This document shows positions 8,175-64,000 of a stretch of DNA of 64,000 nucleotides, one piece after another; the stretch's first letter is position 1; each line of letters begins with the position of its first letter. Under the pieces are notes generated by a model that worked only from the letters and a program-made list of their open reading frames with translations, was not told the DNA's origin and made no database searches. This DNA comes from Thermoplasmata archaeon (GTDB lineage Archaea > Thermoplasmatota > Thermoplasmata > Lutacidiplasmatales > UBA184). The stretch lies in NCBI GenBank assembly GCA_022750115.1, contig JAKIWI010000003.1:175948-239947 (forward strand), written 5' to 3'. Made by a program: the position numbers and the translations under genes.

Positions 8175-8280
8175 CCCGGCTTAGCTCAGTGGTAGAGCGG
8201 GGGACTGTAGTCAGGACCGTCGAAGTTCGGCGGCCCCCGTAGATATCCTCAGGTCGCCTGTTCGAGTCAGGCAGCCGGGA
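8175..8280 (+). tRNA. tRNA-Tyr(GTA) with ~34-nt intron after position 37
   Basis: Acceptor CCCGGCT/AGCCGGG, D-arm GCTC-AGTGGTA-GAGC, anticodon stem GGGGA/TCCTC with loop CTGTAG|intron|A, T-arm GCCTG-TTCGAGT-CAGGC; intron position canonical for archaeal BHB splicing. Confidence 0.7.
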
Positions 8281-30597: not shown

Positions 30598-30699
30598 GTC
30601 GGGGTGGCTCAGCCTGGTAGAGCACGGGACTCATAGCGGGACGGCCACGCCGTTCCGGGAGAGATCCTGGGGCCGGGGGTTCAAATCCCCCCCCCGACA
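30598..30699 (+). tRNA. tRNA-Met(CAT) with ~28-nt intron after position 37
   Basis: Acceptor GTCGGGG/CCCCGAC, D-arm GCTC-AGCCTGGTA-GAGC, anticodon stem CGGGA/TCCTG, loop CTCATA|intron|A, T-arm GGGGG-TTCAAAT-CCCCC. Confidence 0.7.
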
Positions 30700-33837: not shown

Positions 33838-34110
33838 GCGGGCTGGCACAACGATCGACCCGCGACCGATAGACGGCCCCGCATCCCGAACACGGTCTCT
33901 CGACTCCCTTCCGGGTCGTGGGGCAACCTCTTCCGACCAAGTTCGACCCACCGCTCCGGATCCGAATTTTTCGTCCGAGCAACCCCCGACACGCCAGGTC
34001 GGTTCACCCCCCACGCGCCCCGTAGGTGAGCGTGGGACCACGCGTCCGAGTGCCGTCCGCGTCGCAACGCTGTGACCCCGTCGCTCCGGGCACGACCGGG
34101 TTGGCGGCCG

Positions 34111-37100
34111 ATGCACTCTTTGCTACGGGCCCCTGGCTTCCCCAACGCGATGGGAGCGGCCGGGGCCCGAAGCGATGCCCCGACCTCGGACCTCGCGCGC
34201 TTCCGGCATCGCGGCGTGCTCTGGGCCGTCTTGTTCGTAGCCGCCGCCGGAACGATGGGCCTCCCGGCGGGATTGTCGGGGATCGTGGACGCAACGGCGT
34301 CCGCGAATTCCCTCGCGGGCGTTCCCGTCCCTCCACCCGGCCGCGCTCTCGGCGCACCCCCGTCGGCCATCACCCCCACGCTCCCTTCGGGCGCCGCAGG
34401 TCACGCGGTCGAGTCGATGGCCGCTGCGAGCGCGAACGCCAGCGCGTGGTGGCCGTGTCGGTTGTGCGGGCCTCCCGCGCGAGCCAACTTCACGCTCGTC
34501 TCCGACCCGCGGAACGGGGAGCTCGTCCTCCAGGGCGGGTACGCTAGGGCGACCGGCTACTCGCCAGATGTCTGGACGTCCCGCAACGGCCACTGGACCG
34601 AGTCGTTCGCCTACCCGAACATCGGTCGTCGGCAAGGCGCGGCGGCGGCCTACGATCCCGCCATCGGTGAGACGGTCCTCTTTGGTGGGCTCTACGGATG
34701 GGACTACAGCGACACTTGGCTGTTCGACGGCACCAACTGGACCCAGCCGGCGTGCTCCTCGACCTGCCCGCCCCCCGCGCGGTTCGGGGCGAGCATGGCG
34801 TACGACGCTCAGGACCAGTACCTGCTGATGTTCGGTGGTCGCGCCTGCGTCGATTTCTCGTGTCCCCTCAACTCGAGCTTGTCCAACGACTCGTGGATGT
34901 ACCGCGCCGGCGCCTGGACGCAGCTCGCGCCGCCCGTCTCCCCCTCGCCCCGGGCGTGGGCGTCCATGGTCTACGATGCCCGCGACGGCTACGTGGTCCT
35001 GTTCGGCGGAGAGAACGGCGGCCTCCTTTCCGATACGTGGACCTTCCGATCCGGAATCTGGACCAATGTCACCTCACTCGCCGGAGGGGCACCCGCCGCT
35101 CGGGCGTACGCCAGCGCCACCTACGACCCGATCGGGGGGCGGGTCGTCCTCTTCGGCGGCCGGACCGCCATCGGCCCCACCAATGACCTCTGGCAGTTTG
35201 CCGGGGCCGCATGGAATCCTCTACCGGTCCTGCCCGGTCCGATTCCGGCACCTCGAACCGGTGCGGGACTGGCGTACGACCCTACCGCCGGGGACCTGGT
35301 TCTGGTGGGCGGCGCCGCCGGAGGGGGCGCCAAGGATCTCGGAGACTTCTGGGAGCTTCGGGGGGATCGATGGACCGTGTCCCCGGTCCACCAGTCGGCC
35401 TCCAGCGGCCAGGTGATCGCCTACGACGCCAAGGACCACGAGCAGGTCCTCTTCGGGGGTGGCACGATCGGCCTGCTCGGGGACGCGACTTGGAGGTTCC
35501 AAAACGGGGCCTGGAAGGACATCTCGAACCTGAGCCCCACACTCCCGAACCCTCGATTCTCCACCCAAATGACCTACGACGCCCGGGACGGCTACGTGCT
35601 CCTGTTCGGGGGGTACGGCTGCTTTTCTCCGGGCTGCACCGGCGGCATCTTTGGGCAGGGCCCGCTCAACGACACCTGGTCGTTCTCGGGGGGAAACTGG
35701 TCCCCGATCACGACTCCCGTCGCTCCCCCGACGACCGAAAACGGCGGGTTGACCTACGACTCGACGGACCAGGAGGTGGTTCTCCTGACCGAGTGCTCGT
35801 GCAGCGTTTCCTCACCGGTCACGGAGACCTGGACGTACGCGGCCGGGGTCTGGACGAACGTGACCGCCAACCAATCCGTCCAACCCTCGTTCGGCAGCGG
35901 GGGTGTTTCCATCGCGGACTCCCCGTGGGACAAGGGTGTCATCCTGTTCGGCGGTCAAGGGTTCAACTCGACCTGGCTGTTCTCCAACGGAAGTTGGAGC
36001 AATATCACGGGTACCGTCGGTCCGGGTCCGGCCTCCCGGTACGACGCGGGCTTCGCGTTGGATTCGACGGAGGGCTCCCCGGTGCTCTTCGGCGGGTTCC
36101 TTCAACCCGTGTGCTCGACCTGCTTGCCGACCGTGAACGACACGTGGGTGTTCCATCACGGCAGGTGGGTCAACGCGTCGGGCGGTTGGGCTCCCACTCC
36201 GCGCGGCACCGGTCAGGTGGCGGACGACCCGGCCGACCGCGGCGCCCTGCTATGGGGCGAATCCGGGGGACTGAACGCCGCCGACACTTGGTGGTACGGC
36301 CCCCCGCCGAACCTGACGGTCGACCCCCGGGCTTCGCCCCCGGTGGTCGATGCCTCGCTGCCGGTCCAGCTCTTCGCGGGGGAGTCGGGGGGAGTTCCGC
36401 CCTACCTGCTCAATTGGACCCAAGGAAACCGAACCTTGGGCTCGACACCCACGCTGACGGAGCAGTTCGGAGCCCCCGGGCACTACGTCGTCGGGATCAA
36501 CGCCTCCGACCGCAACAACCACTCGGCGAACGCAACGACCTCCGTCGACCTCGTCGCCAACCTGACCGAGACCGCCAACGCCTCGTCGACTCAAGACGCG
36601 GCGGGCGTCGCGATCCAGTTCGCGGGGTCCCACAACGGCGGCGTGGCGCCGTTCCTGACGATCTGGCGCTTCGGGGACGGTGCCTGGAGCAACCGCTCGA
36701 ATTGCTCGCACGTTTTCCAAACGTCCGGCTCGTACACCGTCTGGTTCTGGACGAACGACAGCGCCGGCGCCTCCGTCGGCACGCCCATCGCGCTGACCGT
36801 GACTGCGGCCATCTCCACCGCCGTCACGGAGTCGGCGAACGTCACGGATGTCGGAGTGGCGGTCGTCTTCAACGCGACCGCGATGGGCGGCGTGCCCCCG
36901 ATCCAGTCCTCGTGGAATTTCGGAGACGGCGCGACCGCGATCGGTCCATCGGCATCGCACATCTTTCTCGCCCCCGGACACTACGTCGTGCAGTCCTGGG
37001 CGAACGACAGCGTCGGCGGCTCCGTGACGGCGTCGATCGCCCTGACGGTGAATGCTCGACCCGTCGTCTCTCTGGTGAGCAGCGGACCGCTCGACCTGGG

Positions 37101-38106
37101 GCAGACCCTCGGCCTGCAAGCCAGCTCGGTCAACGGCTCCGGGACGATCGGCTACTCGTGGCAGGGATTGCCCACGGGGTGCGGGACGTCGCCGCTCGCT
37201 CGGATCTACTGTGCTCCCTCGACCGCCGGCGGCTTCGTTGTGGTGGTGACCGGGACCGATGCCGTCGGCGTATCGGTGGCTTCTCCCGCCGTTGCTGTGA
37301 CGGTGTTTCCGATCCTGAACGCCACGCTTCACCTCGCACCCACCTCGATCGACCTGGGGCAGGCCGCCAGCCTCTCGGTGAATGTCTCGGGAGGGGCGCC
37401 GCAGGATGCGATCACGTTCAGCGGCCTTCCGTCGGGCTGCCCGAGTGAGAATGCCACCTCGATCCGCTGTGTCGCCGGGGCACAGGGAACTTTCCACATC
37501 CGGGCCCACGTCACCGATTCCGTCGGCGGCAGCGCAAACGGCTCGGCGTCCCTCGTGGTCAACCCGGGACTCGCCGTGTCGGGGTTCTGGGTCAACACCT
37601 CGTTCATCAATCTCGGCGACAACGTGACGTTCACGTTCGCCGCCATCGGCGGGAGCGGCGCCCGATCGTACTCGTACACGGCCCTGCCCCCGGGGTGCGC
37701 CTCGTCCAACACCTCCCTCCTCTCGTGCCGCCCCTCAGCCGCCGGAAATTTCACTGTGGACGCCCTCGTGGCCGACGCGGCCGGAGAACACGCGGGCGCG
37801 AACGTTTCGCTGTTGGTGTTGCCCGCACCCGGCGGTGGGACGACGGCGACCGGTCTCTCCGGAGCGATACCGTACGAGCTCCTGGGCGCAGTCGGAGCGG
37901 CCATCCTCGCGGTACTGCTCGTTTGGCGGCGATATCGCCGACCCCCGACGGGCACGACGGGCGCCAGGACGGAGGCGGAGCAGGACCGGGAGGTGGGGCA
38001 CGATCCGGGCGTTGCGGAAGCGCACCTGGATTCGGAACCCACGGAACGCGGGAGCCCGCTCGATCATCCCAATCGGGGTCGTTCCCGTCGGCCTGCGACC
38101 GGATAG
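34111..38106 (+). CDS. giant surface protein: Kelch-type beta-propeller region followed by multiple PKD domains and C-terminal TM anchor
   Basis: ~1330 aa; repeated VLFGG / WxF blades in first ~600 aa; PKD hallmarks GGVPPYLLNW, GGVAPFLTIWRFGDGAWSN, GGVPPIQSSWNFGDGAT; anchor AILAVLLVWRRYRR; abundant NxS/T sequons; start could be a later in-frame Met. Confidence 0.7.
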   Translation: MHSLLRAPGFPNAMGAAGARSDAPTSDLARFRHRGVLWAVLFVAAAGTMGLPAGLSGIVDATASANSLAGVPVPPPGRALGAPPSAITPTLPSGAAGHAVESMAAASANASAWWPCRLCGPPARANFTLVSDPRNGELVLQGGYARATGYSPDVWTSRNGHWTESFAYPNIGRRQGAAAAYDPAIGETVLFGGLYGWDYSDTWLFDGTNWTQPACSSTCPPPARFGASMAYDAQDQYLLMFGGRACVDFSCPLNSSLSNDSWMYRAGAWTQLAPPVSPSPRAWASMVYDARDGYVVLFGGENGGLLSDTWTFRSGIWTNVTSLAGGAPAARAYASATYDPIGGRVVLFGGRTAIGPTNDLWQFAGAAWNPLPVLPGPIPAPRTGAGLAYDPTAGDLVLVGGAAGGGAKDLGDFWELRGDRWTVSPVHQSASSGQVIAYDAKDHEQVLFGGGTIGLLGDATWRFQNGAWKDISNLSPTLPNPRFSTQMTYDARDGYVLLFGGYGCFSPGCTGGIFGQGPLNDTWSFSGGNWSPITTPVAPPTTENGGLTYDSTDQEVVLLTECSCSVSSPVTETWTYAAGVWTNVTANQSVQPSFGSGGVSIADSPWDKGVILFGGQGFNSTWLFSNGSWSNITGTVGPGPASRYDAGFALDSTEGSPVLFGGFLQPVCSTCLPTVNDTWVFHHGRWVNASGGWAPTPRGTGQVADDPADRGALLWGESGGLNAADTWWYGPPPNLTVDPRASPPVVDASLPVQLFAGESGGVPPYLLNWTQGNRTLGSTPTLTEQFGAPGHYVVGINASDRNNHSANATTSVDLVANLTETANASSTQDAAGVAIQFAGSHNGGVAPFLTIWRFGDGAWSNRSNCSHVFQTSGSYTVWFWTNDSAGASVGTPIALTVTAAISTAVTESANVTDVGVAVVFNATAMGGVPPIQSSWNFGDGATAIGPSASHIFLAPGHYVVQSWANDSVGGSVTASIALTVNARPVVSLVSSGPLDLGQTLGLQASSVNGSGTIGYSWQGLPTGCGTSPLARIYCAPSTAGGFVVVVTGTDAVGVSVASPAVAVTVFPILNATLHLAPTSIDLGQAASLSVNVSGGAPQDAITFSGLPSGCPSENATSIRCVAGAQGTFHIRAHVTDSVGGSANGSASLVVNPGLAVSGFWVNTSFINLGDNVTFTFAAIGGSGARSYSYTALPPGCASSNTSLLSCRPSAAGNFTVDALVADAAGEHAGANVSLLVLPAPGGGTTATGLSGAIPYELLGAVGAAILAVLLVWRRYRRPPTGTTGARTEAEQDREVGHDPGVAEAHLDSEPTERGSPLDHPNRGRSRRPATG

Positions 38107-54445: not shown

Positions 54446-55159
54446 ATGGGCACGCCCATCGCGGGAACCTACCCCCCGCCGCTCGCCTCGGGCGACCGCG
54501 ACGTCAAGGCGTTCGCGTTCAGCCCCTGGCCGCTCCGCTCCCGCCACTTTCCGAACGAGGTCCGACAAACGTTCGAGGGTTGGCCGAGCGCAACGTTTCG
54601 GACCCGGACGAAAGAGGCGATGGAGCGGCTGGGGTTCAGTGTCGCCGCCGAATCCGCCATCCCGCTCTTCCACGCCAAGGCGCCGCGGGAGGGCCACGCT
54701 CCGAAGCCGCTCGTTGGTGTCTGGGTCGGCGAGAGGAACCTGCGCCTGGACCTCACCTTACGGAAGCGCGCCGACCTCAGGATGGCGGGGTTGGCCGTCC
54801 TCGCCGTCGCGCTCGTGGTCGTCACGCTCGCCGTCTCGCCTCTGCGACCGTACCTTGTTCTGGCCGCCCTGGCGGGCGGCATGATGTTCGCGGGCGTGAT
54901 CAGCGCCTATACCGGTCGGGGGGCGTTCGACAGCGACATCGTCTACGTGGTCGCGGAGACCTCGCCGAACCTGGCGCCGGGAACGACGCTGACCCCCGAC
55001 GATCCTCTCACCCTCGAGGTTCGGTCCGGTTCCGCAAGGGTCACGACCGCGAACTGGGCGGCCAAGCACTCGAGCGGTCGTTCTCTCAAGAAAGTGAATC
55101 CTGCCGACCTCGGGCTCACCGGAACCCCGTCCGAACTGCTGAAGCTGATCCGCGGCTGA
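54446..55159 (+). CDS. hypothetical membrane protein, tandem paralog A (unassigned family)
   Basis: 237 aa, two central TM helices; shares blocks GER(N/D)LRLDLxLRK, GRGAFDSD(I/L)(V/I)Y(V/L)V.ET.PN.P.GTTLT, GSARV..ANW.AKHS.GR with downstream gene. Confidence 0.45.
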   Translation: MGTPIAGTYPPPLASGDRDVKAFAFSPWPLRSRHFPNEVRQTFEGWPSATFRTRTKEAMERLGFSVAAESAIPLFHAKAPREGHAPKPLVGVWVGERNLRLDLTLRKRADLRMAGLAVLAVALVVVTLAVSPLRPYLVLAALAGGMMFAGVISAYTGRGAFDSDIVYVVAETSPNLAPGTTLTPDDPLTLEVRSGSARVTTANWAAKHSSGRSLKKVNPADLGLTGTPSELLKLIRG

Positions 55160-55196: not shown

Positions 55197-55922
55197 GTGT
55201 CCCAACTCATGGCGACCCCCCTCCCGACCGGGACTCCGAGCGCCCCGGCTCCGCCCCAACTCGGTGCCACTCCGTACCAGTTCATGGCCGGGTCCGTCAC
55301 CCAAAAGCACCTGCCGAACGAGGCGCGCGATCGCCTCGAAGCGTGGTCGTACTCGATGTTGGTGGCGCGGGCGAAGGACGCCCTGGTGGGGCTCGGGTAC
55401 ACGCTCTCGGCGTTCGACCCGATCGAACTCCCCACGACGGTGAAGGTCGCGAAGCACCCGCGGACGCTCTACGGGACGATGGTCGGCGAGCGCGACCTGC
55501 GCCTCGACCTCGCTCTCCGCAAGGCCGCGGGCCAACGCGCGGTCGTCCTCTTCCTCATCGCCGTCGGCCTCGGCGCGATCGGGATCTTCGCCGTTCTCTC
55601 CTACGGGCGCCCGTACGCGGCACTGAGCCTGATGGGTGCCGCGATCGTCGGTGTCGCGGGTGTGATCAGCTTCTCCGGCCGGGGTGCGTTCGACAGCGAC
55701 CTGATCTATCTCGTGTTCGAGACCACGCCGAACGCCCCGGAGGGCACGACCCTCACGAGCGAGACGCCGTTCACGTTCGACATCTGGGCGGGAAGCGCCC
55801 GGGTCTCGAGCGCGAACTGGACCGCCAAGCACTCGAACGGGCGGGACTTCCGCGCGATCCTCGCTTCGGCGTCGCCGCCGTCGGCGACCCCCCACGACCT
55901 GTTCCAACGGATCCGCGGCTGA
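55197..55922 (+). CDS. hypothetical membrane protein, tandem paralog B (unassigned family)
   Basis: 241 aa; same conserved blocks as paralog A. Confidence 0.45.
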   Translation: MSQLMATPLPTGTPSAPAPPQLGATPYQFMAGSVTQKHLPNEARDRLEAWSYSMLVARAKDALVGLGYTLSAFDPIELPTTVKVAKHPRTLYGTMVGERDLRLDLALRKAAGQRAVVLFLIAVGLGAIGIFAVLSYGRPYAALSLMGAAIVGVAGVISFSGRGAFDSDLIYLVFETTPNAPEGTTLTSETPFTFDIWAGSARVSSANWTAKHSNGRDFRAILASASPPSATPHDLFQRIRG

Positions 55923-57666: not shown

Positions 57667-58140
57667 CTAGTCGTTCCAGGTCATCCGACACGTCGGGCAG
57701 AACGACCCGCTCATCTCGGAGCCACAGAGGAAGCATCGCGTGGACCCGGCCAGAGGACGATGGGACGAGCCGCCCGCGGCCACATCGGCCTCGGGAAGTC
57801 GGGGCGGGGGCCCGATGGAGAGAGGTAGTTCAAGCGAGGGGCCGTCGAATGCGGGAGTCAGGGCGGGAGTCTCGGCCGAGGCCTGGGACTCCGCTCCTTC
57901 CGGGGACGACATCTCCTGGGCCGTCGAGGGTGACGTGGGTCCGAACTCCGACTCGGCATCGTCGGTCTCGGCCGGTTCCGGCTCACCGACGATGTCCGGG
58001 TCCCCATCGACTTCGGGCGCGCGGTGGGGGTAGATGTCGGGATCTCCGGAAGCCTCCTCGCCAACGGGTTCGCCCGCCCCGGCCTCCTCGCCCTCCTCCT
58101 TCGGCTTCCGGAGACGTAGCCGTCGGAACAGGCCGGCCAT
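57667..58140 (-). CDS. acidic hypothetical protein with C-terminal zinc ribbon
   Basis: Glu/Asp/Pro-rich body; C-terminal CFLCGSEMSGSFCPTC. Confidence 0.4.
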   Translation of the reverse strand: MAGLFRRLRLRKPKEEGEEAGAGEPVGEEASGDPDIYPHRAPEVDGDPDIVGEPEPAETDDAESEFGPTSPSTAQEMSSPEGAESQASAETPALTPAFDGPSLELPLSIGPPPRLPEADVAAGGSSHRPLAGSTRCFLCGSEMSGSFCPTCRMTWND

Positions 58141-58237: not shown

Positions 58238-58702
58238 ATGCCGACCGGTCCGAGCGAGAAGTTGCGCGAGCTCGGGATCGCTCTTCCCCCACCGCCGAAA
58301 CCCGTCGGAGCCTACCGTCCGGTCGCCGTCGACGGAGACCACGCTTGGGTCTCCGGACAGATCCCGGTGGTCGACGGTCAGCCGCTCCACCCCGGCGTGG
58401 TCGGCCGCGACGTCACGGTCGATCAGGCGAAGGCGGGCGCGGAGCGCGCCGCCCTCCAGGCCCTGAGCGCCCTCCAGCACGAGCTCGGGGATCTCGACCG
58501 GGTCCGCCGGATCGTCCGCGTCGGAGTCTACGTGGCCTCGGCCCCCGATTTTGTCCGCCATGCCGACGTCGGGAACGGCGCGACAGAGCTCCTGGTCCGG
58601 GTGTTCGGCGACGACGGGCGGCCGGCCCGGGTCTCGATGGGGCTCGCCTCGCTCCCGCTCGGCGCCTGCGTCGAGGTCGAACTCCTCGCCCGAATTGCGT
58701 GA
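58238..58702 (+). CDS. RidA/YjgF-family protein
   Basis: 154 aa; LPPPPKPVGAYRPVAVDGDHAWVSGQIP N-terminus and C-terminal ...RVSMGLASLPLGACVEVE pattern of YjgF/chorismate-mutase-like fold. Confidence 0.7.
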   Translation: MPTGPSEKLRELGIALPPPPKPVGAYRPVAVDGDHAWVSGQIPVVDGQPLHPGVVGRDVTVDQAKAGAERAALQALSALQHELGDLDRVRRIVRVGVYVASAPDFVRHADVGNGATELLVRVFGDDGRPARVSMGLASLPLGACVEVELLARIA

Positions 58703-58712
58703 GGGTCGAGCG

Positions 58713-59363
58713 GTGGACGCGACGGAGTGGCCGGGCGTCTACCGCATCGGCCGCGACCTCTACACGCGGAACGCCGTCCCCGGCGAGTCCGTGTACGGCG
58801 AAGACCTCCGCTCCGAATCCGGCACCGAGTACCGTCGGTGGGATCCGTGGCGCTCGAAGCTCGCGGCGTACCTCGCGAACGGCGCCCCGGCGCCGCTCTG
58901 GCCCGGCGTTCGGACGGTCCTCTACCTCGGCGCGGCGCATGGGACGACGGTGAGCCACCTTTCCGATGCGCTCCCGGACGCGATGGTGTTCGCCGTCGAG
59001 AAGAGCCCGCCCGTGTTCGCTCCACTGCTGGCGCTCGCCCGACGCCGCCGCAACATCGTGCCGATCCTCGCCGATGCGCAGCTTCCCGAGCGCTACGCCG
59101 CGGACGTGGGACCGGTCGACCTCCTCGTCCAGGACGTCGCGCAACGCGACCAGAGCCGCATCTACCGGGAGAACGCTGCGGCGTGCCGGGCCAAGCGCGG
59201 AATCCTGATGTTGAAGATCCGGTCCGTCACCCAGCGGCTCCCTCCGAACCGGGTCGTCCGGCAGTCGCGCCACGAGCTCGATGCGGCGGGGCTCAAGGTC
59301 GGCGAGGGAGTCGACCTGGGACCGTTCTCGCGCGAGCACGTCGCCCTGTCGACCGGCGTCTAG
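58713..59363 (+). CDS. flpA: fibrillarin-like rRNA/tRNA 2'-O-methyltransferase
   Basis: YRRWDPWRSKLAA, VLYLGAAHGTTVSHLSD, VFAVEKSP, NIVPILADAQLPERYA, LLVQDVAQRDQ blocks align with archaeal fibrillarin; GTG start assumed after RidA stop. Confidence 0.85.
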   Translation: MDATEWPGVYRIGRDLYTRNAVPGESVYGEDLRSESGTEYRRWDPWRSKLAAYLANGAPAPLWPGVRTVLYLGAAHGTTVSHLSDALPDAMVFAVEKSPPVFAPLLALARRRRNIVPILADAQLPERYAADVGPVDLLVQDVAQRDQSRIYRENAAACRAKRGILMLKIRSVTQRLPPNRVVRQSRHELDAAGLKVGEGVDLGPFSREHVALSTGV

Positions 59364-59426
59364 CCATCGTTCATCGTTCGGCCGGAGGTTCCGGTCAAAG
59401 TAGTTCCTTCCCCGCTCGGTTCGACG

Positions 59427-61217
59427 GTGGTTGCTGTGCGAACGCTCTCGTCGCGCACCGTGGACGTCTCTGTCGCCGCAATGGTCGTCGCGCTCCTGAC
59501 CCTCTCCGGGGGTCTCGGGATCGATCCCTCGTCCTCGGGTCTCCCGACCCATCGCGGGAGCTCGGCGCCGAACTCCCCGGTCGACCTTCCTCCTCCGCAT
59601 TCTCCGCAAGCTCCACCGACCAGCTCGGCGGGGATCGCTCTACCGACCGCTCGATCAACGTCCGCTCGCGCCCTGCCGATGTCGCGCGACCTCGCGGCGA
59701 GCGGCCAGTCGAGTGACGGGTTGACCGTCGCCATCGTCCGGCCACCGGTCGACATCGACGTTCGGGCGAACGTCACGCTCACCGGAGTCGCGCTCGGCGG
59801 CGTGGGGCCGTACGACGCGTTCTGGAGCATGGCGACGGGCGAGGTCAGCCCGGGCTGGTCGATCGGATGGACCGCGCCCGACCAGCCCACCCGGGTGTTC
59901 GCCCTGTTCGAGGTTCGCGATCACCAAGGCTCCGTGGCGGAGGTCCAAGCACCGATCTCCGTGGTGGCGACCCCGTTCCTGGAGCTGTCCGGGCTCGGCG
60001 CGGTCGGGGACGTCGGAGTCCCGTTCCTCTTCTCGGTGAACGTCACCGGAGGGGTCGGTCCGTTCGATGTGACGTGCTCCGTCGTCGATGGAGCGTCGAA
60101 CGAGACCACCGCCGCTCCCTCCGACGGCCGGTTCACGGCCGCCGTGGTACCCGACACACCGGGACCGGTGTGGGTCGTCGGAACGGTCACCGACGCCGAC
60201 GGTCGCAGCTTCTCGGCCGTGACGCCGATCGGCCGCGCGACGCCCCCTCCGGTGCTGTCGATGGCGAATGTCCCGTTCGCGGAGGTCGGTTACGTTACGT
60301 CCCTCCCACTCGCGGTCGCCGAAGGGACCCCCCCGTTCGCGTGGTCAGTCACGGTCGCCCCGGGGGTCTCGGCGGTCACGCCCGCGACCGGGACCCTCGC
60401 CTCCGACGGCGCGATCCCGCTCTCCGCGACGTTCGATGAGGTCGGGCTCTTCTCGATCCCAGTCGCCCTCGTGGATGCGTCCGGCGTGTCGGTCGCGACG
60501 AACCTGACCGTGAACGTCTCGGCCGGCCTCAACCTCACGATCGCTCCCGGCGCGAGCCCCTCGGTCGTCGGGTCGCCCCTCCCGCTCCGGGCCACGATCT
60601 CCGGTGGTCTTCCTCCCTACGAGTACCGGATCGCCCTGTCGGACAACGAGCTCTCCGAAGGGAACATCTCGCAGGTCGGTCCGATCGATTGGACGGCGAC
60701 GCCGGTCGTCGCGGGCTACCTCACCGTGCATGCCTCGGTCCGGGACAGCACCGGTCGGGTCGCGAACGTCACCTTCACCGTTTACGTCGCTCCGGCCGGC
60801 GCGGTCCTCTCCGGTGTCGCTCCCGGATCGGCGACGGGGACGCTCGCCGCGCTCGCGGCCGCCGGAGGCTCCGTCGCCGCACTCGTTGGCGCCTTCCTGT
60901 TCCGCCGCTGGTGGCACCGCCGGTCGCCCAACTTGCCCAAACCCTCGCCGGATGGGCCGGGCCATACCGTCGTTCGGGAGCTCCTCGCGGAGGCCGAGGA
61001 CGGGCTCGACCGCTCCACGCTCGAGCTCCTCGCCGAGGAGCGCCACATCTCCGCTGCGGAGCTCACCGCCGGGATCGCCGCCTGGCAGCGCGCCGGCCGC
61101 GTCCGGGTCGACGACGACGGGGACGGGCGCCAGGTCGTCCGGTGGGTGCCGCCAACGGCCTCCGACCCGGACCTGGGCTCGGCCCCCGCCGGGAAGGCGG
61201 ACGAGGAGGCGCTGTGA
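59427..61217 (+). CDS. surface protein with signal peptide, 4+ PKD/Ig-like repeats, TM anchor and ~100-aa cytoplasmic helical (winged-helix-like) tail
   Basis: GGVGPYDAFWS, GGVGPFDVTCSV, EGTPPFAWSVTV, GGLPPYEYRIAL repeat cores; anchor LAALAAAGGSVAALVGAFLF then RRWWHRR; tail ...TVVRELLAEAEDGLDRSTLELLAEERHISAAELTAGIAAWQRAGRVRV. Confidence 0.6.
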   Translation: MVAVRTLSSRTVDVSVAAMVVALLTLSGGLGIDPSSSGLPTHRGSSAPNSPVDLPPPHSPQAPPTSSAGIALPTARSTSARALPMSRDLAASGQSSDGLTVAIVRPPVDIDVRANVTLTGVALGGVGPYDAFWSMATGEVSPGWSIGWTAPDQPTRVFALFEVRDHQGSVAEVQAPISVVATPFLELSGLGAVGDVGVPFLFSVNVTGGVGPFDVTCSVVDGASNETTAAPSDGRFTAAVVPDTPGPVWVVGTVTDADGRSFSAVTPIGRATPPPVLSMANVPFAEVGYVTSLPLAVAEGTPPFAWSVTVAPGVSAVTPATGTLASDGAIPLSATFDEVGLFSIPVALVDASGVSVATNLTVNVSAGLNLTIAPGASPSVVGSPLPLRATISGGLPPYEYRIALSDNELSEGNISQVGPIDWTATPVVAGYLTVHASVRDSTGRVANVTFTVYVAPAGAVLSGVAPGSATGTLAALAAAGGSVAALVGAFLFRRWWHRRSPNLPKPSPDGPGHTVVRELLAEAEDGLDRSTLELLAEERHISAAELTAGIAAWQRAGRVRVDDDGDGRQVVRWVPPTASDPDLGSAPAGKADEEAL

Positions 61218-61591
61218 GCGCCTTCGGCGGATCGGTCGGCCTGCTGCTCGTCAGCGTCGTTCTGTTGGCCGGATTCGCCCCGCTGGGCGGGACCGGCGCC
61301 CCACGGTCGGCGCCCCCGAACGAGCTCCGCTCCGCCGTGTCGAACGGTTCGGCGGTCGGCAACTTCTCCGCGGTCGTCGCCCGCATCGTCGTCCTGCTCG
61401 GCGCCGCGGGCGGCGGCCTGCTCGCGATCGTCTGGGCACGCGTGGCGCTGTCGTGGTTCTCGAACGATGTGACGAAGAAGATCCAGGCGAAGGACCGCGC
61501 CCGCGACGCGCTCGTCGGGACCCTCCTGTTCTCGGCGGCGCTCTCCGGGCTCATCTGGGGGCTCGCCCGCTGGGTGCTGACCGGCAGCTAG
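61214..61591 (+). CDS. small membrane protein (signal/TM + two TM), VirB2/TrbC/CedA1-like by architecture only
   Basis: 125 aa; GTG start overlapping upstream stop; hydrophobic segments GGSVGLLLVSVVLLAGFAPLGG, IVVLLGAAGGGLLAIVWARVALSWF, LVGTLLFSAALSGLIWGLARWVL. Confidence 0.4.
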   Translation: MSAFGGSVGLLLVSVVLLAGFAPLGGTGAPRSAPPNELRSAVSNGSAVGNFSAVVARIVVLLGAAGGGLLAIVWARVALSWFSNDVTKKIQAKDRARDALVGTLLFSAALSGLIWGLARWVLTGS

Positions 61592-61603
61592 CGGGGGTCG
61601 AGC

Positions 61604-62740
61604 ATGACCTCCGTCTCGGACGCCGTCAACGCGGTCCTGTTCGCGCTGTTCGCCGCGCTGACGGCGGCGCTGTGGGCCGTGACGCTCCCGACCTACAACG
61701 ACCTCCTGGTTCCGGAGATGCAGCCGTCGTCCCTCTACCCTCCGCTGCTCGGCGGCGGGGCGGGGGGGAGCTCGTTCCTCGCCCTCGCGGCGCCGTTCTC
61801 CGCGTACCTCGTCGCGAACGTCGTCGACCCGTCGGTCGCGCTCGTCGTGCTCGCCCTCGGGGCGGTCTACCTCGCGCGGGCGGTGACGACGACGACCCGC
61901 GCGCGCCTCGAGGGACTCCTCCCGCGCCTCGTCGTCGCGGTCGTGCTCGCGAACGTCGTGGTGCCCGTCGCCGCGGCGATCCTCGACGTCGCGGGAGCGA
62001 TGTACCCCGTCGTCGCGAACTTCGACGGCGGTGCCTGGGAGTCGTGGGGCAACCTCGCCGGTACGGGCGGGCTGCGGTTTTCCTGGGACAACGGGCTCCT
62101 CGCCTTCGTCGTCTCGTTCGCGTTGTTCTCGCTCGTGCTGCTCCTCGCCTTCGCCGTCGCGGCGCGCGATGCGCTGCTCGCCGTGCTGATCGTCCTCCTC
62201 CCGCTGTTCACCCTCCTCGGCCCGATCCCCCCGCTCGCGCCGCTCGCCCGGCGGTCGTGGATCCTGTTCGGCGAGCTCGCCTTCGTGCCGATCGTCGTCG
62301 TCGTCCCGCTCGAGCTCGCCGTCGGCGCGCCGTCGATCCTGTTGCTCGTCGCCTACCTCGGCGTCGCCGTCGGAGCGCCGTCGCTCCTCAGCGTCGCCGG
62401 CACCCAACTCGGCCGGCTCGGGTTCCCGTCCGGCGGCTCCGCCCTCACGGGGGGCGTCGAGCGGGGGCTGGGAGCGGCGTCGGTCGGAGTGACCTCGCTC
62501 GCGCGACCGTTCGGCTCCGTCGTGCGCTCCTCGCCCCGCGGGAAGGTCGCGGTCGACGCGGGCCGCGCCCTCGCGCGCGTCCCGATCCCGTACGCCGCCC
62601 CGCTGCTCGCCGCCGAAGGGCTGGGACGCGGCGCGGAAGCGCTGTTCCGGCACATCTCCGACGCGCGCCTCTCGCTCGCGTCCCACCGGTTCGGCGGGGT
62701 TGACGCCGGCCATCCCGAACACCTGTCGGACCACCGGTGA
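61604..62740 (+). CDS. polytopic membrane protein (VirB6/TrbL/CedA-like by architecture only)
   Basis: 378 aa, ~7-8 TM helices, Ala/Leu/Val-rich; 12 bp after previous gene. Confidence 0.45.
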   Translation: MTSVSDAVNAVLFALFAALTAALWAVTLPTYNDLLVPEMQPSSLYPPLLGGGAGGSSFLALAAPFSAYLVANVVDPSVALVVLALGAVYLARAVTTTTRARLEGLLPRLVVAVVLANVVVPVAAAILDVAGAMYPVVANFDGGAWESWGNLAGTGGLRFSWDNGLLAFVVSFALFSLVLLLAFAVAARDALLAVLIVLLPLFTLLGPIPPLAPLARRSWILFGELAFVPIVVVVPLELAVGAPSILLLVAYLGVAVGAPSLLSVAGTQLGRLGFPSGGSALTGGVERGLGAASVGVTSLARPFGSVVRSSPRGKVAVDAGRALARVPIPYAAPLLAAEGLGRGAEALFRHISDARLSLASHRFGGVDAGHPEHLSDHR

Positions 62741-63512
62741 GATCGTGGCCGACGGAGTCTCCCCGAGCGTTTCGATCCCGCTCCCCCGGCCGGTCGACCG
62801 ACGTCTCCACCTCGGGCCGTTCCCCTCGGCGCGCGACGCGCTAAAGTTCGCCGGCTACGCCTGCGCCGGCCTGGTCGCCGTCCCCTTGGCGGGCCCCGCG
62901 GCCGTCGTCCCGTTCGCCGGGCTCGGGTTCCTCCTGGCGGTCTACCGGCGGGACGGGCGCGCGCTCGACGACCGGGTCGCCGGCTACCTCGCCTGGCGAT
63001 GGCGGCGCCGGTTGCGCCACCGACCCTCGGGGGACGCCGGGTCGACCTCGGCCGGCGCCACCGCTCTCGTCGGCGGCGGCCGGGTCGCGGCCGTCGTGCG
63101 GGCGGGGGGAGTGCCGGTCGCGTTCCTCCCGCCGGACGACGCCCGGTCGTTGTTCGAGGGGACCCGTCGGTGGCTCGATGCGCTCGACGGAGGGGTCTAC
63201 CTCGTCGCCGACGCGACGCCGTTCCGGGCGGCGCCGTTCCGGCCGAAGGCGGCGGCGGGACCCGCCGACCGCGCGGCGCGCGACGGCTACGACGAGGTCG
63301 TCCGACTCCTCCTGCGTCGCCGCCGGGCGCGACGGGTCGCGGTCGTGCTCTGGGAGCCGGCCGACCCCGCCGGCGTCGCGCGACTGGAGGGGCGGGTCCA
63401 GGCGACCAGCGAGGCGCTGCGGGGGCTCGGACTAGCGACCGAGCGGCTTCGGGGCGCGGAACTCCGGTCGGACCTGGCGCGACTTGCGCTCTCGGGGGGG
63501 AACGGACGGTGA
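62700..63512 (+). CDS. hypothetical protein with N-terminal TM hairpin and Arg-rich soluble domain
   Basis: TTG/ATG start ambiguity; FAGYACAGLVAVPLAGPAAVVPFAGLGFLLAVY TM hairpin; overlaps previous gene by ~40 nt. Confidence 0.35.
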   Translation: MTPAIPNTCRTTGEIVADGVSPSVSIPLPRPVDRRLHLGPFPSARDALKFAGYACAGLVAVPLAGPAAVVPFAGLGFLLAVYRRDGRALDDRVAGYLAWRWRRRLRHRPSGDAGSTSAGATALVGGGRVAAVVRAGGVPVAFLPPDDARSLFEGTRRWLDALDGGVYLVADATPFRAAPFRPKAAAGPADRAARDGYDEVVRLLLRRRRARRVAVVLWEPADPAGVARLEGRVQATSEALRGLGLATERLRGAELRSDLARLALSGGNGR

Positions 63513-63859
63513 AGTGGATCGCGGCGTTGCATCTCCCCACCGGCATCGATGCCGTCGCCACGGCCGGCCTGTTCGGCGCGGTCGCCGGCGCGGCCTCGGT
63601 CGTCGAACCGTACTGGACGGGCCTCTCGGAGGCCCTCGCCACGGTCGCGGCCGTCGGATGGGTCGCCCGGGCCCGGACGGAGGCCGGCGTCCGGCGTCGG
63701 ACGTGGGTTCCGCCCGCGATCGCCGGCGTCGCGGTCGCCTTCGCCCTCGTCGCCCCCTCCCCGTGGAACGTCGGGCGCGGCCTCGGATTCGGCGGGGCGG
63801 CGGCTGTACTCGCCTGGGGCGCGCGGCGGGGCGTCCGGTTCGGGGAGGACGGAGCATGA
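63509..63859 (+). CDS. hypothetical small membrane protein
   Basis: GTG start overlapping stop; 3-4 hydrophobic segments; followed at 63856 by a new ORF start (MRDPPTHESPSFVV...) truncated by window end. Confidence 0.3.
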   Translation: MKWIAALHLPTGIDAVATAGLFGAVAGAASVVEPYWTGLSEALATVAAVGWVARARTEAGVRRRTWVPPAIAGVAVAFALVAPSPWNVGRGLGFGGAAAVLAWGARRGVRFGEDGA

Positions 63860-64000
63860 GGGACCCACCGACCCACGAGTCTCCGAGCTTCGTCGTCCGC
63901 CGCGGACGACTCGACGGACCCGTGCTCGTCCGCGTTCTCCCGAAGGAGGTGCCGTTCGGCTTCCTCTCCCGCCTCCTCCCGACGAGCAGGTCGTTCGAGG

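Follow-up and report, generated by a model that had tools for sequence, protein, structure and literature searches.

The stretch of DNA analyzed here, called the window throughout, comprises 64,000 nucleotides from a Thermoplasmata archaeon. Its last part, from position 59427 to the end, is occupied by six tightly packed genes, A to F, which are all located on the + strand (Table 1); several of them encode proteins that resemble components of type IV secretion systems (T4SS). The preliminary description of this DNA had noted a string of co-oriented genes with overlapping stop and start codons. This is indeed the arrangement of the six genes: three junctions have 4-nt overlaps, namely GTGA at 61214 between A and B, GTGA at 63509 between D and E, and ATGA at 63856 between E and F. 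A further overlap, which had been placed at 62700, is probably wrong; the start of D is a GTG located 4 nt past the stop of C, and an identical NCBI protein as well as all homologs begin at the equivalent position. The new open reading frame (ORF) that had been seen to begin in the E/F overlap is F, of which 48 codons are visible.

Table 1. Genes of the cluster at the end of the window, with the evidence on which each was delimited or assigned.
Gene	Position in window	Strand	Product	Evidence
A	59427-61217	+	596 aa	ORF and hydropathy
B	61214-61591	+	125 aa	alignment of 55 sequences and hydropathy
C	61604-62740	+	378 aa	AlphaFold model, fold and profile matches
D	62745-63512	+	255 aa	alignment, structure model, PrgI profile match
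E	63509-63859	+	116 aa	ORF between D and F in 47 loci
F	63856-64000	+	first 48 codons, cut by window end	synteny with relatives

The six frames have the properties of real genes. Their GC content at third codon positions (GC3) is 0.85-0.95 in a window of ~70% GC; the fibrillarin gene directly upstream (58551-59363) has a value of 0.90, and long alternative or antisense ORFs lack such a signature. A metagenome-assembled genome (MAG) of a Thermoplasmata archaeon at NCBI encodes two hypothetical proteins with 100% identity to B and D. A second assembly contains a 5.4-kb contig that has 99.5% identity to window 58560-64000 and ends 2 nt past the window; the NCBI product of A in this contig has 585 aa, meaning that the true start of A is perhaps 11 codons downstream. 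When 185,579 species genomes were scanned with a motif of protein D, 63 loci were found; all of them belong to Thermoplasmata MAGs, among which are Ca. Lutacidiplasma silvani and members of Lutacidiplasmatales. The order of all six genes is kept in these 63 species genomes, the reading frames are intact and the mean column identity is 50-68% for B, C, D and F. Direct Pfam and NCBIfam scans of A to F from the window gave nothing usable, and the assignments below are based on alignments, profiles, structure models and relatives.

The clearest signal comes from F. Its 48 visible residues are 71-81% identical to the N-termini of proteins with 554-555 aa, which are encoded at the same position in loci L001-L006 and L013. 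Two long syntenic contigs have the gene order PstS-PhoU-DUF885-x-RidA-fibrillarin-A-B-C-D-E, followed by the 554-555 aa DUF87 protein F and by a gene G; thereafter come a convergent gene for a P-loop protein of 867-890 aa (H), HxlR and an MFS gene. The upstream genes of the window are the same as in these two contigs, with 77-84% identity. The full-length F proteins of the relatives match the NCBIfam model of the VirB4-like conjugal transfer ATPase, CD1110 family, with an E of 7.9e-36 (model positions 214-734 of 752); they also match Mbov_0397 (E 2e-25), VirB4_CagE and TraC, and the F profile finds the C-terminal domain of VirB4 (PDB 4AG5) with E 2e-29. In 47 F sequences the motifs Walker A (GTTGSGKS) and Walker B (VVDEAH) do not vary. 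The scores remain under the curated equivalog cut-offs, which indicates membership in the VirB4 superfamily but in no named subfamily. HerA models match F only with an E of about 1e-4, and the VirB4 matches are better by 30 orders of magnitude; a repair module of the HerA-NurA type was rejected on these grounds. The prediction that F is a VirB4-like ATPase is well supported by these sequence comparisons. The preliminary description had anticipated an ATPase just beyond position 64000 and had named ordinary metabolic genes as the contrary outcome; judged by synteny, the gene that directly follows E is the VirB4-like one.

D is built from a near-invariant N-terminal motif (LGPFPSARD / LGPFPSARDALKF), a transmembrane (TM) hairpin and a soluble alpha/beta domain of ~150 aa; the structure model has a pLDDT of 81.8. 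D and E had been described as two further small membrane proteins, a view that is adequate for E but misses the soluble domain of D. The D profile matches a 349-aa PrgI family protein encoded by a plasmid of Embleya sp. NBC_00896 (NZ_CP108778.1), both with hhalign (E 1.8e-5, Prob 78%, 239 columns) and with hmmsearch (E 3.8e-8). Among 42 members of the D family, 8 have a weak Pfam match to PrgI and 2 to TraC_F_IV. The D profile gave no match in a search of PDB sequences, and the top Foldseek match of the model, TrwK/VirB4 (7o42_A), is non-significant (E 0.012, TM-score 0.29). From these data the identification of D as a long PrgI/VirB3-like protein has good support, and its probable role is to hold the VirB4-like ATPase at the membrane.

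The Embleya plasmid carries the closest near-full-coverage plasmid homolog of F. Its genes encode, in this order, a polytopic protein of 753 aa, the PrgI family protein, a small protein of the XF1762 family, an ATP-binding protein (643 aa), a type IV coupling protein (T4CP), a replication-relaxation protein and NlpC/P60. The F profile matches the ATP-binding protein with E 5e-36 and is collinear with it from the N-terminus. Since D and F both match this plasmid pair, we assign D-F to one branch of monoderm-type T4SS, as its PrgI-VirB4 pair. The profiles of B and C did not match the 753-aa protein or the neighbours on haloarchaeal plasmids. The closest plasmid VirB4 homologs of F all have <30% identity.

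C is a polytopic membrane protein. The preliminary description had counted 7-8 TM helices; hydropathy and an AlphaFold model, which was computed with 57 homologs as input (pLDDT 82.6), suggest ~6-7 membrane helices, followed by a C-terminal region of amphipathic character. The proposed similarity to VirB6/TrbL was borne out. When the model was compared with 350,542 PDB chains, the five best matches were TrwI/VirB6 of the plasmid R388 T4SS (~260 columns, prob 0.51-0.98, E 0.04-0.4). A search with the C profile among 1.84 billion representatives returned 82 proteins at E<=1e-3. In 58 remote homologs the only recurrent Pfam families were TrbL (4 proteins, best 5e-8) and TrbL_4 (2 proteins), and the NCBIfam names were all those of conjugation membrane proteins of integrative and conjugative elements (ICE) from monoderms, i.e. 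CD3337/EF1877, MMCAP2_0566, Mbov_0395 and Mbov_0396. About 10 close homologs have a weak precomputed match to TrbL_3. Direct searches with C in Pfam, NCBIfam and PDB sequences found no match at threshold. Taken together the data provide solid support for C as a VirB6/TrbL-like protein and putative translocation channel.

The N-terminus of B is variable and resembles a signal peptide; it is followed by a nearly invariant hairpin of ~76 aa, in which two hydrophobic helices are joined by a basic loop, NDVTKKIQAKDRARD. The loop itself is nearly invariant in an alignment of 55 sequences. Hydropathy and alignment are in agreement with the earlier view of an N-terminal signal/TM segment, two hydrophobic helices and a KKIQAKD loop. 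The proposed relation to VirB2/TrbC pilins was only partly confirmed: the layout fits, and a scan of the 55 members against all of Pfam found T4SS_pilin (PF18895) in 18 of them, albeit weakly and below threshold (best E 0.0014). TrbC/VirB2 and CagC were each found in 1 member, and other families in no more than 4 members each. Distant homologs of B occupy the same gene position, directly upstream of C-like genes (E 3e-25 and 2e-23); one of them has a clear signal-peptidase site (AHA↓S) and another a precomputed T4SS_pilin match. On this sequence basis B is probably a VirB2-type pilin. This pilin-like gene is represented in about 800 protein clusters from metagenomes.

Additional observations concern B and its relation to C. 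The 55 B sequences all share an N-glycosylation sequon, N-F-[ST], where the hairpin starts (residues 50-52, window 61361-61369), and the distant homologs in loci L070/L071 have NNST at this position. One remote homolog of C contains a strong T4SS_pilin domain (E 1e-11). A 435-aa protein, which is encoded upstream of a C-like gene (L072:52-1359), has a weak match to the B profile. These two proteins may be pilin-VirB6 fusions, which would recall the reported N-terminal homology of CedA1 and CedA.

A is a type I membrane protein and a lineage-specific addition to the cluster. Hydropathy identifies a signal/TM segment at ~residues 11-33 and a C-terminal TM segment at ~471-493; the latter is followed by a tail of ~100 aa, as had been noted. 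The ectodomain contains four repeats of ~90 aa, each marked by GGxxP[YF]. These had been taken for PKD repeats, an assignment that we do not uphold: Pfam gave no PKD match and only weak Ig-like/RbmA-like ones. A also has a weak match to PamR, a pilus-system protein of the candidate phyla radiation (CPR). The length of A varies from ~560 to 870 aa across relatives, and the identity of the ectodomain is 26-55%. The tail (window 60903-61214) is conserved in 43 loci although the ectodomain diverges strongly. In a search of the PDB the tail profile found sub-threshold matches, about two-thirds of which are winged-helix (winged helix-turn-helix) regulators; judged from these matches, the cytoplasmic tail is probably a winged helix. 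A membrane-anchored winged helix beside a T4SS-like channel is unusual. Elsewhere in the window, 36613-37578 has a weak match to the repeats of A (26.5% over 358 aa); the ORF to which this part belongs (34072-38106, +) may encode, as far as this match goes, a second large repeat-containing surface protein.

E, a small hydrophobic membrane protein, is a second lineage-specific addition. Its position between D and F is conserved but its sequence poorly so, with a mean column identity of 36% in the alignment. Family scans of the E members gave no consistent family match, and E did not match XF1762. G, the gene after F in the relatives, encodes a small soluble protein with conserved His-rich motifs; its profile had no match among PDB sequences. 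The convergent H gene after G, which codes for a VirD4/T4CP-like ATPase, is present in the seven nearest relatives. H is 27% identical to the Embleya T4CP over 326 aa (E 4e-16), is similar to a 679-aa protein of the distant locus L071 and has a weak winged-helix match; it has no predicted TM segments and no significant match to VirB4-like proteins. In the more distant relatives (e.g. L029:13291-14181, - strand, L067:12532-13371, - strand, and ~40 other loci) the slot right after G is filled by a convergent gene for an N6/N4 DNA methyltransferase.

The preliminary description had also raised the possibility that the cluster belongs to an integrated element. This reading was rejected on account of the fixed synteny and of the lack of detected integrase or relaxase genes. 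In every contig that reaches far enough upstream the cluster directly follows DUF885-RidA-fibrillarin, and the flanks are of housekeeping type; downstream of G, distant relatives have the DNA methyltransferase, an OMP-decarboxylase/HPS fusion, TruA and PstS. The precomputed Pfam tables of L001, L002 and L067 and scans of selected conserved ORFs, which together make up a non-exhaustive survey, showed no relaxase, integrase or replication genes. There is no tRNA at the cluster border (border repeats were not searched), and a set of 2.9 million viral contigs contains no relatives of B or of D. The identity of C and D to a reference correlates with that of fibrillarin (rho 0.59), and the corresponding value for fibrillarin versus DUF885 is 0.60. 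The cluster genes hence diverge with the flanking genes as well as the flanks do with each other, which supports a fixed locus.

The base composition agrees with this picture. Window 60000-64000 is the most GC-rich part (0.73-0.76 versus 0.69), and the cluster lies 2-6 GC points above the rest of the window. A similar excess over the flanks, ~2.4 GC points, occurs in 31 of the 32 syntenic loci; an excess that is so common is a property of the genes and no sign of recent arrival. Furthermore, a low-GC archaeal chromosome (a 147-kb JGI contig) carries a compact module beside topoisomerase VI genes (L071:9640-15860), with genes in a row for a 115-aa pilin-like, a 347-aa VirB6-like, a 194-aa TM-plus-domain, a 527-aa VirB4-like and the 679-aa T4CP-like protein. 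The module must therefore be older and wider than the GC-rich clade. The cluster is chromosomal, vertically inherited and lineage-wide, and no mobile-element genes were found in it; this conclusion is well supported.

Together, these results suggest, with a fair degree of probability, that 59427-64000 is the 5' two-thirds of a minimal, relaxase-less T4SS-like cluster of MPF-FATA relationship, which is fixed in the chromosome and serves most likely for transfer of cellular DNA. The identity as a chromosomal, relaxase-less T4SS-like module is the well supported part of this reading. The function is argued by analogy: relaxase, integrase and mobile hallmarks were not found and the cluster is inherited with housekeeping neighbours, so that DNA transfer as in the Ced and Ted systems, here between cells of the same lineage, appears most likely.

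A mechanism can be proposed from established T4SS architecture, as known from the R388 structure (PMC9259494), and from work on Ced and Ted (PMC9905601, PMC11868833). D would tether hexamers of F beneath the C channel. F would power the insertion and extraction of B subunits, by which a short pilus or conduit is built, as well as the passage of substrate, and H, where present, would feed substrate to the channel. The fast-evolving ectodomain of A could mediate cell-cell contact and in this way give partner specificity, and on the cytoplasmic side its tail might keep DNA or a partner protein in place.

Several results weigh against this reading. The matches of the single membrane proteins B, C and D are all short of conventional significance, with the Pfam matches of B and D below threshold; Foldseek found no PDB match at E<=0.001 for C or D, and the profile of B had no match among PDB sequences. 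The precomputed TrbL_3 match of the C homologs was not reproduced in a live Pfam scan. A comparison of the B and C profiles, meant to test for a CedA1/CedA-style relationship, showed no mutual similarity. The body of the ATPase and all genes past 64000 were read in relatives only, most relatives have no H at the locus and the survey for relaxases and integrases was, as stated above, not exhaustive. Moreover, Patescibacteria have relaxase-less chromosomal T4SS of MPF-FATA affinity, for which a co-option to roles other than conjugation has been proposed (PMC12102498).

The last point leads to the explanation that competes most with DNA transfer, i.e. that the same T4SS-like machine has a role without DNA, such as the delivery of proteins or effectors, contact with a host or partner, or an adhesive pilus. 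The core that is kept in all 63 genomes includes no obvious DNA-processing enzyme, and A, with its large, fast-evolving and adhesin-like ectodomain and its PamR match, would suit such a role. The cluster has, on the other hand, no conserved effector-like gene; in two lineages it is linked to a gene for a T4CP-like ATPase, in which a winged-helix region is putatively present, and the conserved tail of A resembles a DNA-binding fold. The only characterized chromosomal T4SS derivatives of archaea move DNA (PMC9905601, PMC11868833). We consider a role without DNA unlikely, albeit an alternative to be taken seriously. It is very unlikely that the cluster encodes a membrane complex unrelated to T4SS, which uses an ATPase of the HerA/FtsK superfamily and in which the T4SS similarities of B, C and D came about by chance matching of hydrophobic proteins. 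Each membrane-protein match is individually below the usual thresholds, and TM-rich profiles can attract spurious matches; but four proteins point by independent methods to the T4SS component that is expected at their gene position, and these scans gave no recurrent matches to random TM families. The wide gap between the VirB4 and HerA matches of F and the collinearity of D and F with the PrgI/VirB4-like pair of a plasmid on which genes for a T4CP and a relaxase-like protein are also present are likewise difficult to reconcile with chance. The least likely explanation is that an integrated conjugative element or a plasmid has decayed here to a remnant without current function. The parts are typical of conjugative elements, their closest named relatives reside on plasmids and ICEs, and the GC content of the cluster exceeds that of the remaining window. 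Decay is contradicted by the same locus, gene order and intact frames in 63 genomes, by the column identities of B, C, D and F and the invariant Walker motifs, and by the strong coding signature in GC3. The GC excess recurs in nearly all syntenic loci, and integrase, relaxase or tRNA were not seen at the borders.

Sulfolobales/Desulfurococcales (Ced) and Thermoproteales (Ted) are the only groups for which domesticated conjugation machines with cellular DNA as cargo have been documented, and according to a structural paper from 2023 domestication beyond these lineages has not been reported (PMC9905601). We found no analysis of such a system from Thermoplasmatota in the literature, and the paper on Lutacidiplasmatales does not mention one. 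Fixation of a cluster with this logic in the chromosomes of at least 63 species of Thermoplasmata would indicate a path for gene flow in abundant uncultured archaea from soil and sediment. A PrgI/VirB3-type anchor in a chromosomal system of archaea also bears on how VirB4 is tethered in these organisms. The B pilus, the C channel, the D-F motor and the A adhesin are concrete targets for structural work and metatranscriptomics. A bolder idea is that Thermoplasmata, including the mesophilic Lutacidiplasmatales of acid soils, have a third independently domesticated machine for the exchange of chromosomal DNA between cells, in which A couples species-specific contact outside to a DNA-binding winged helix inside. 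DNA exchange of the Ced/Ted type would then extend beyond hyperthermophilic Thermoproteota, and archaea would possess a VirB3 equivalent; VirB3 homologs are stated to be absent from archaea in the Ced literature (PMC11868833). We offer this idea only tentatively, as a conjecture that may well not hold.

Other parts of the window contain features that are worth recording. Two tRNA genes of 102-106 nt, which were found with Rfam at 8175-8280 (+) and 30598-30699 (+) and which ARAGORN did not report, are probably intron-containing archaeal tRNAs. Together with the fibrillarin gene and the NCBI protein of 100% identity, they mark the DNA as archaeal. Between PhoU and DUF885 lie two ORFs of 237 and 241 aa (54446-55159, +, and 55197-55922, +), each with one hydrophobic segment; they look like tandem paralogs, and L002 has a single similar gene. 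An acidic protein of 157 aa (57667-58140, -) ends in a zinc-ribbon-like motif, CxxC...CxxC; it is syntenic, has 48% identity to its counterpart in L001 and has no assigned family.

Among known systems the cluster is closest to the T4SS of the MPF-FATA type, which include those of the Embleya plasmid and of haloarchaeal plasmids, the CD1110-family modules of Firmicutes and the Mbov_0395-0397 ICE modules of Mycoplasma. The VirB4-like ATPase, the long PrgI protein encoded upstream of it, the gene order, the polytopic VirB6-like protein, the small pilin-like protein and, in some lineages, a T4CP-like second ATPase are shared. The cluster differs from these systems by its fixed chromosomal site, by identities of <30% and by the addition of A, E and G; no gene for a relaxase-like protein or a cell-wall hydrolase was found, and most genomes have no T4CP at this locus. 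The chromosomal T4SS of Patescibacteria are similar in their MPF-FATA affinity, in the possession of VirB4, PrgI/VirB3, VirB6 and VirB2-like pilins, in the lack of a relaxase and in their lineage-wide occurrence (PMC12102498). Their bearers are bacteria with an epibiotic lifestyle, and they include TrsD and other components not seen here (PMC12102498).

A similar set of genes may be present in a member of the same archaeal class. The genome paper on Cuniculiplasma (Thermoplasmatales) only lists arCOG05340, arCOG04034 (VirB4) and arCOG05369 together with a separate VirD4-like ATPase, arCOG04816 (PMC5155288). By this description the Cuniculiplasma cluster resembles ours in having a small membrane protein, a multipass protein, a membrane protein and VirB4, with the VirD4-like ATPase elsewhere (PMC5155288). 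Compared again by description, L071 has this type of layout, and its pilin-like and VirB6-like proteins are homologs of B and C, respectively.

The Ced and Ted systems, with which cells move their own DNA, derive from T4SS; both are encoded on the chromosome and have no relaxase (PMC9905601, PMC11868833). With Ced (CedA, CedA1, CedA2, CedB, CedD and CedE) the cluster shares the chromosomal location, the absence of a relaxase and the trio of VirB2-, VirB6- and VirB4-like proteins; in both systems the N-terminal functions of VirB4 are spread over more than one polypeptide (PMC9905601, PMC11868833). The cluster differs from Ced in that one VirB4-like ATPase is paired with a PrgI/VirB3-like protein, and its hosts are mesophilic Thermoplasmata of soil and not hyperthermophilic Thermoproteota. 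An affinity to Ced, which the preliminary description had considered, is not borne out by the ATPase sequence: F scores far below the cut-offs of the CedB model (11.4 bits, cut-off 700, E 0.09) and of the CedD model (41.3 bits, cut-off 600, E 8e-11), and its affinity is to monoderm and archaeal-plasmid T4SS. NCBIfam scans of B, C and the 58 remote C homologs gave no Ced-named family. Ted (TedA, TedB and TedC) resembles the cluster, when compared by description, as a domesticated T4SS with a VirB2-like pilin bearing a signal peptide, a VirB6-like channel and a bona fide VirB4-like ATPase; the VirC1/ParA, Rad50 and HerA-like genes of Ted loci are not seen here (PMC9905601). By sequence the affinity of the cluster is thus to T4SS of the MPF-FATA type and not to Ced, and its parallel to Ced and Ted is one of lifestyle.

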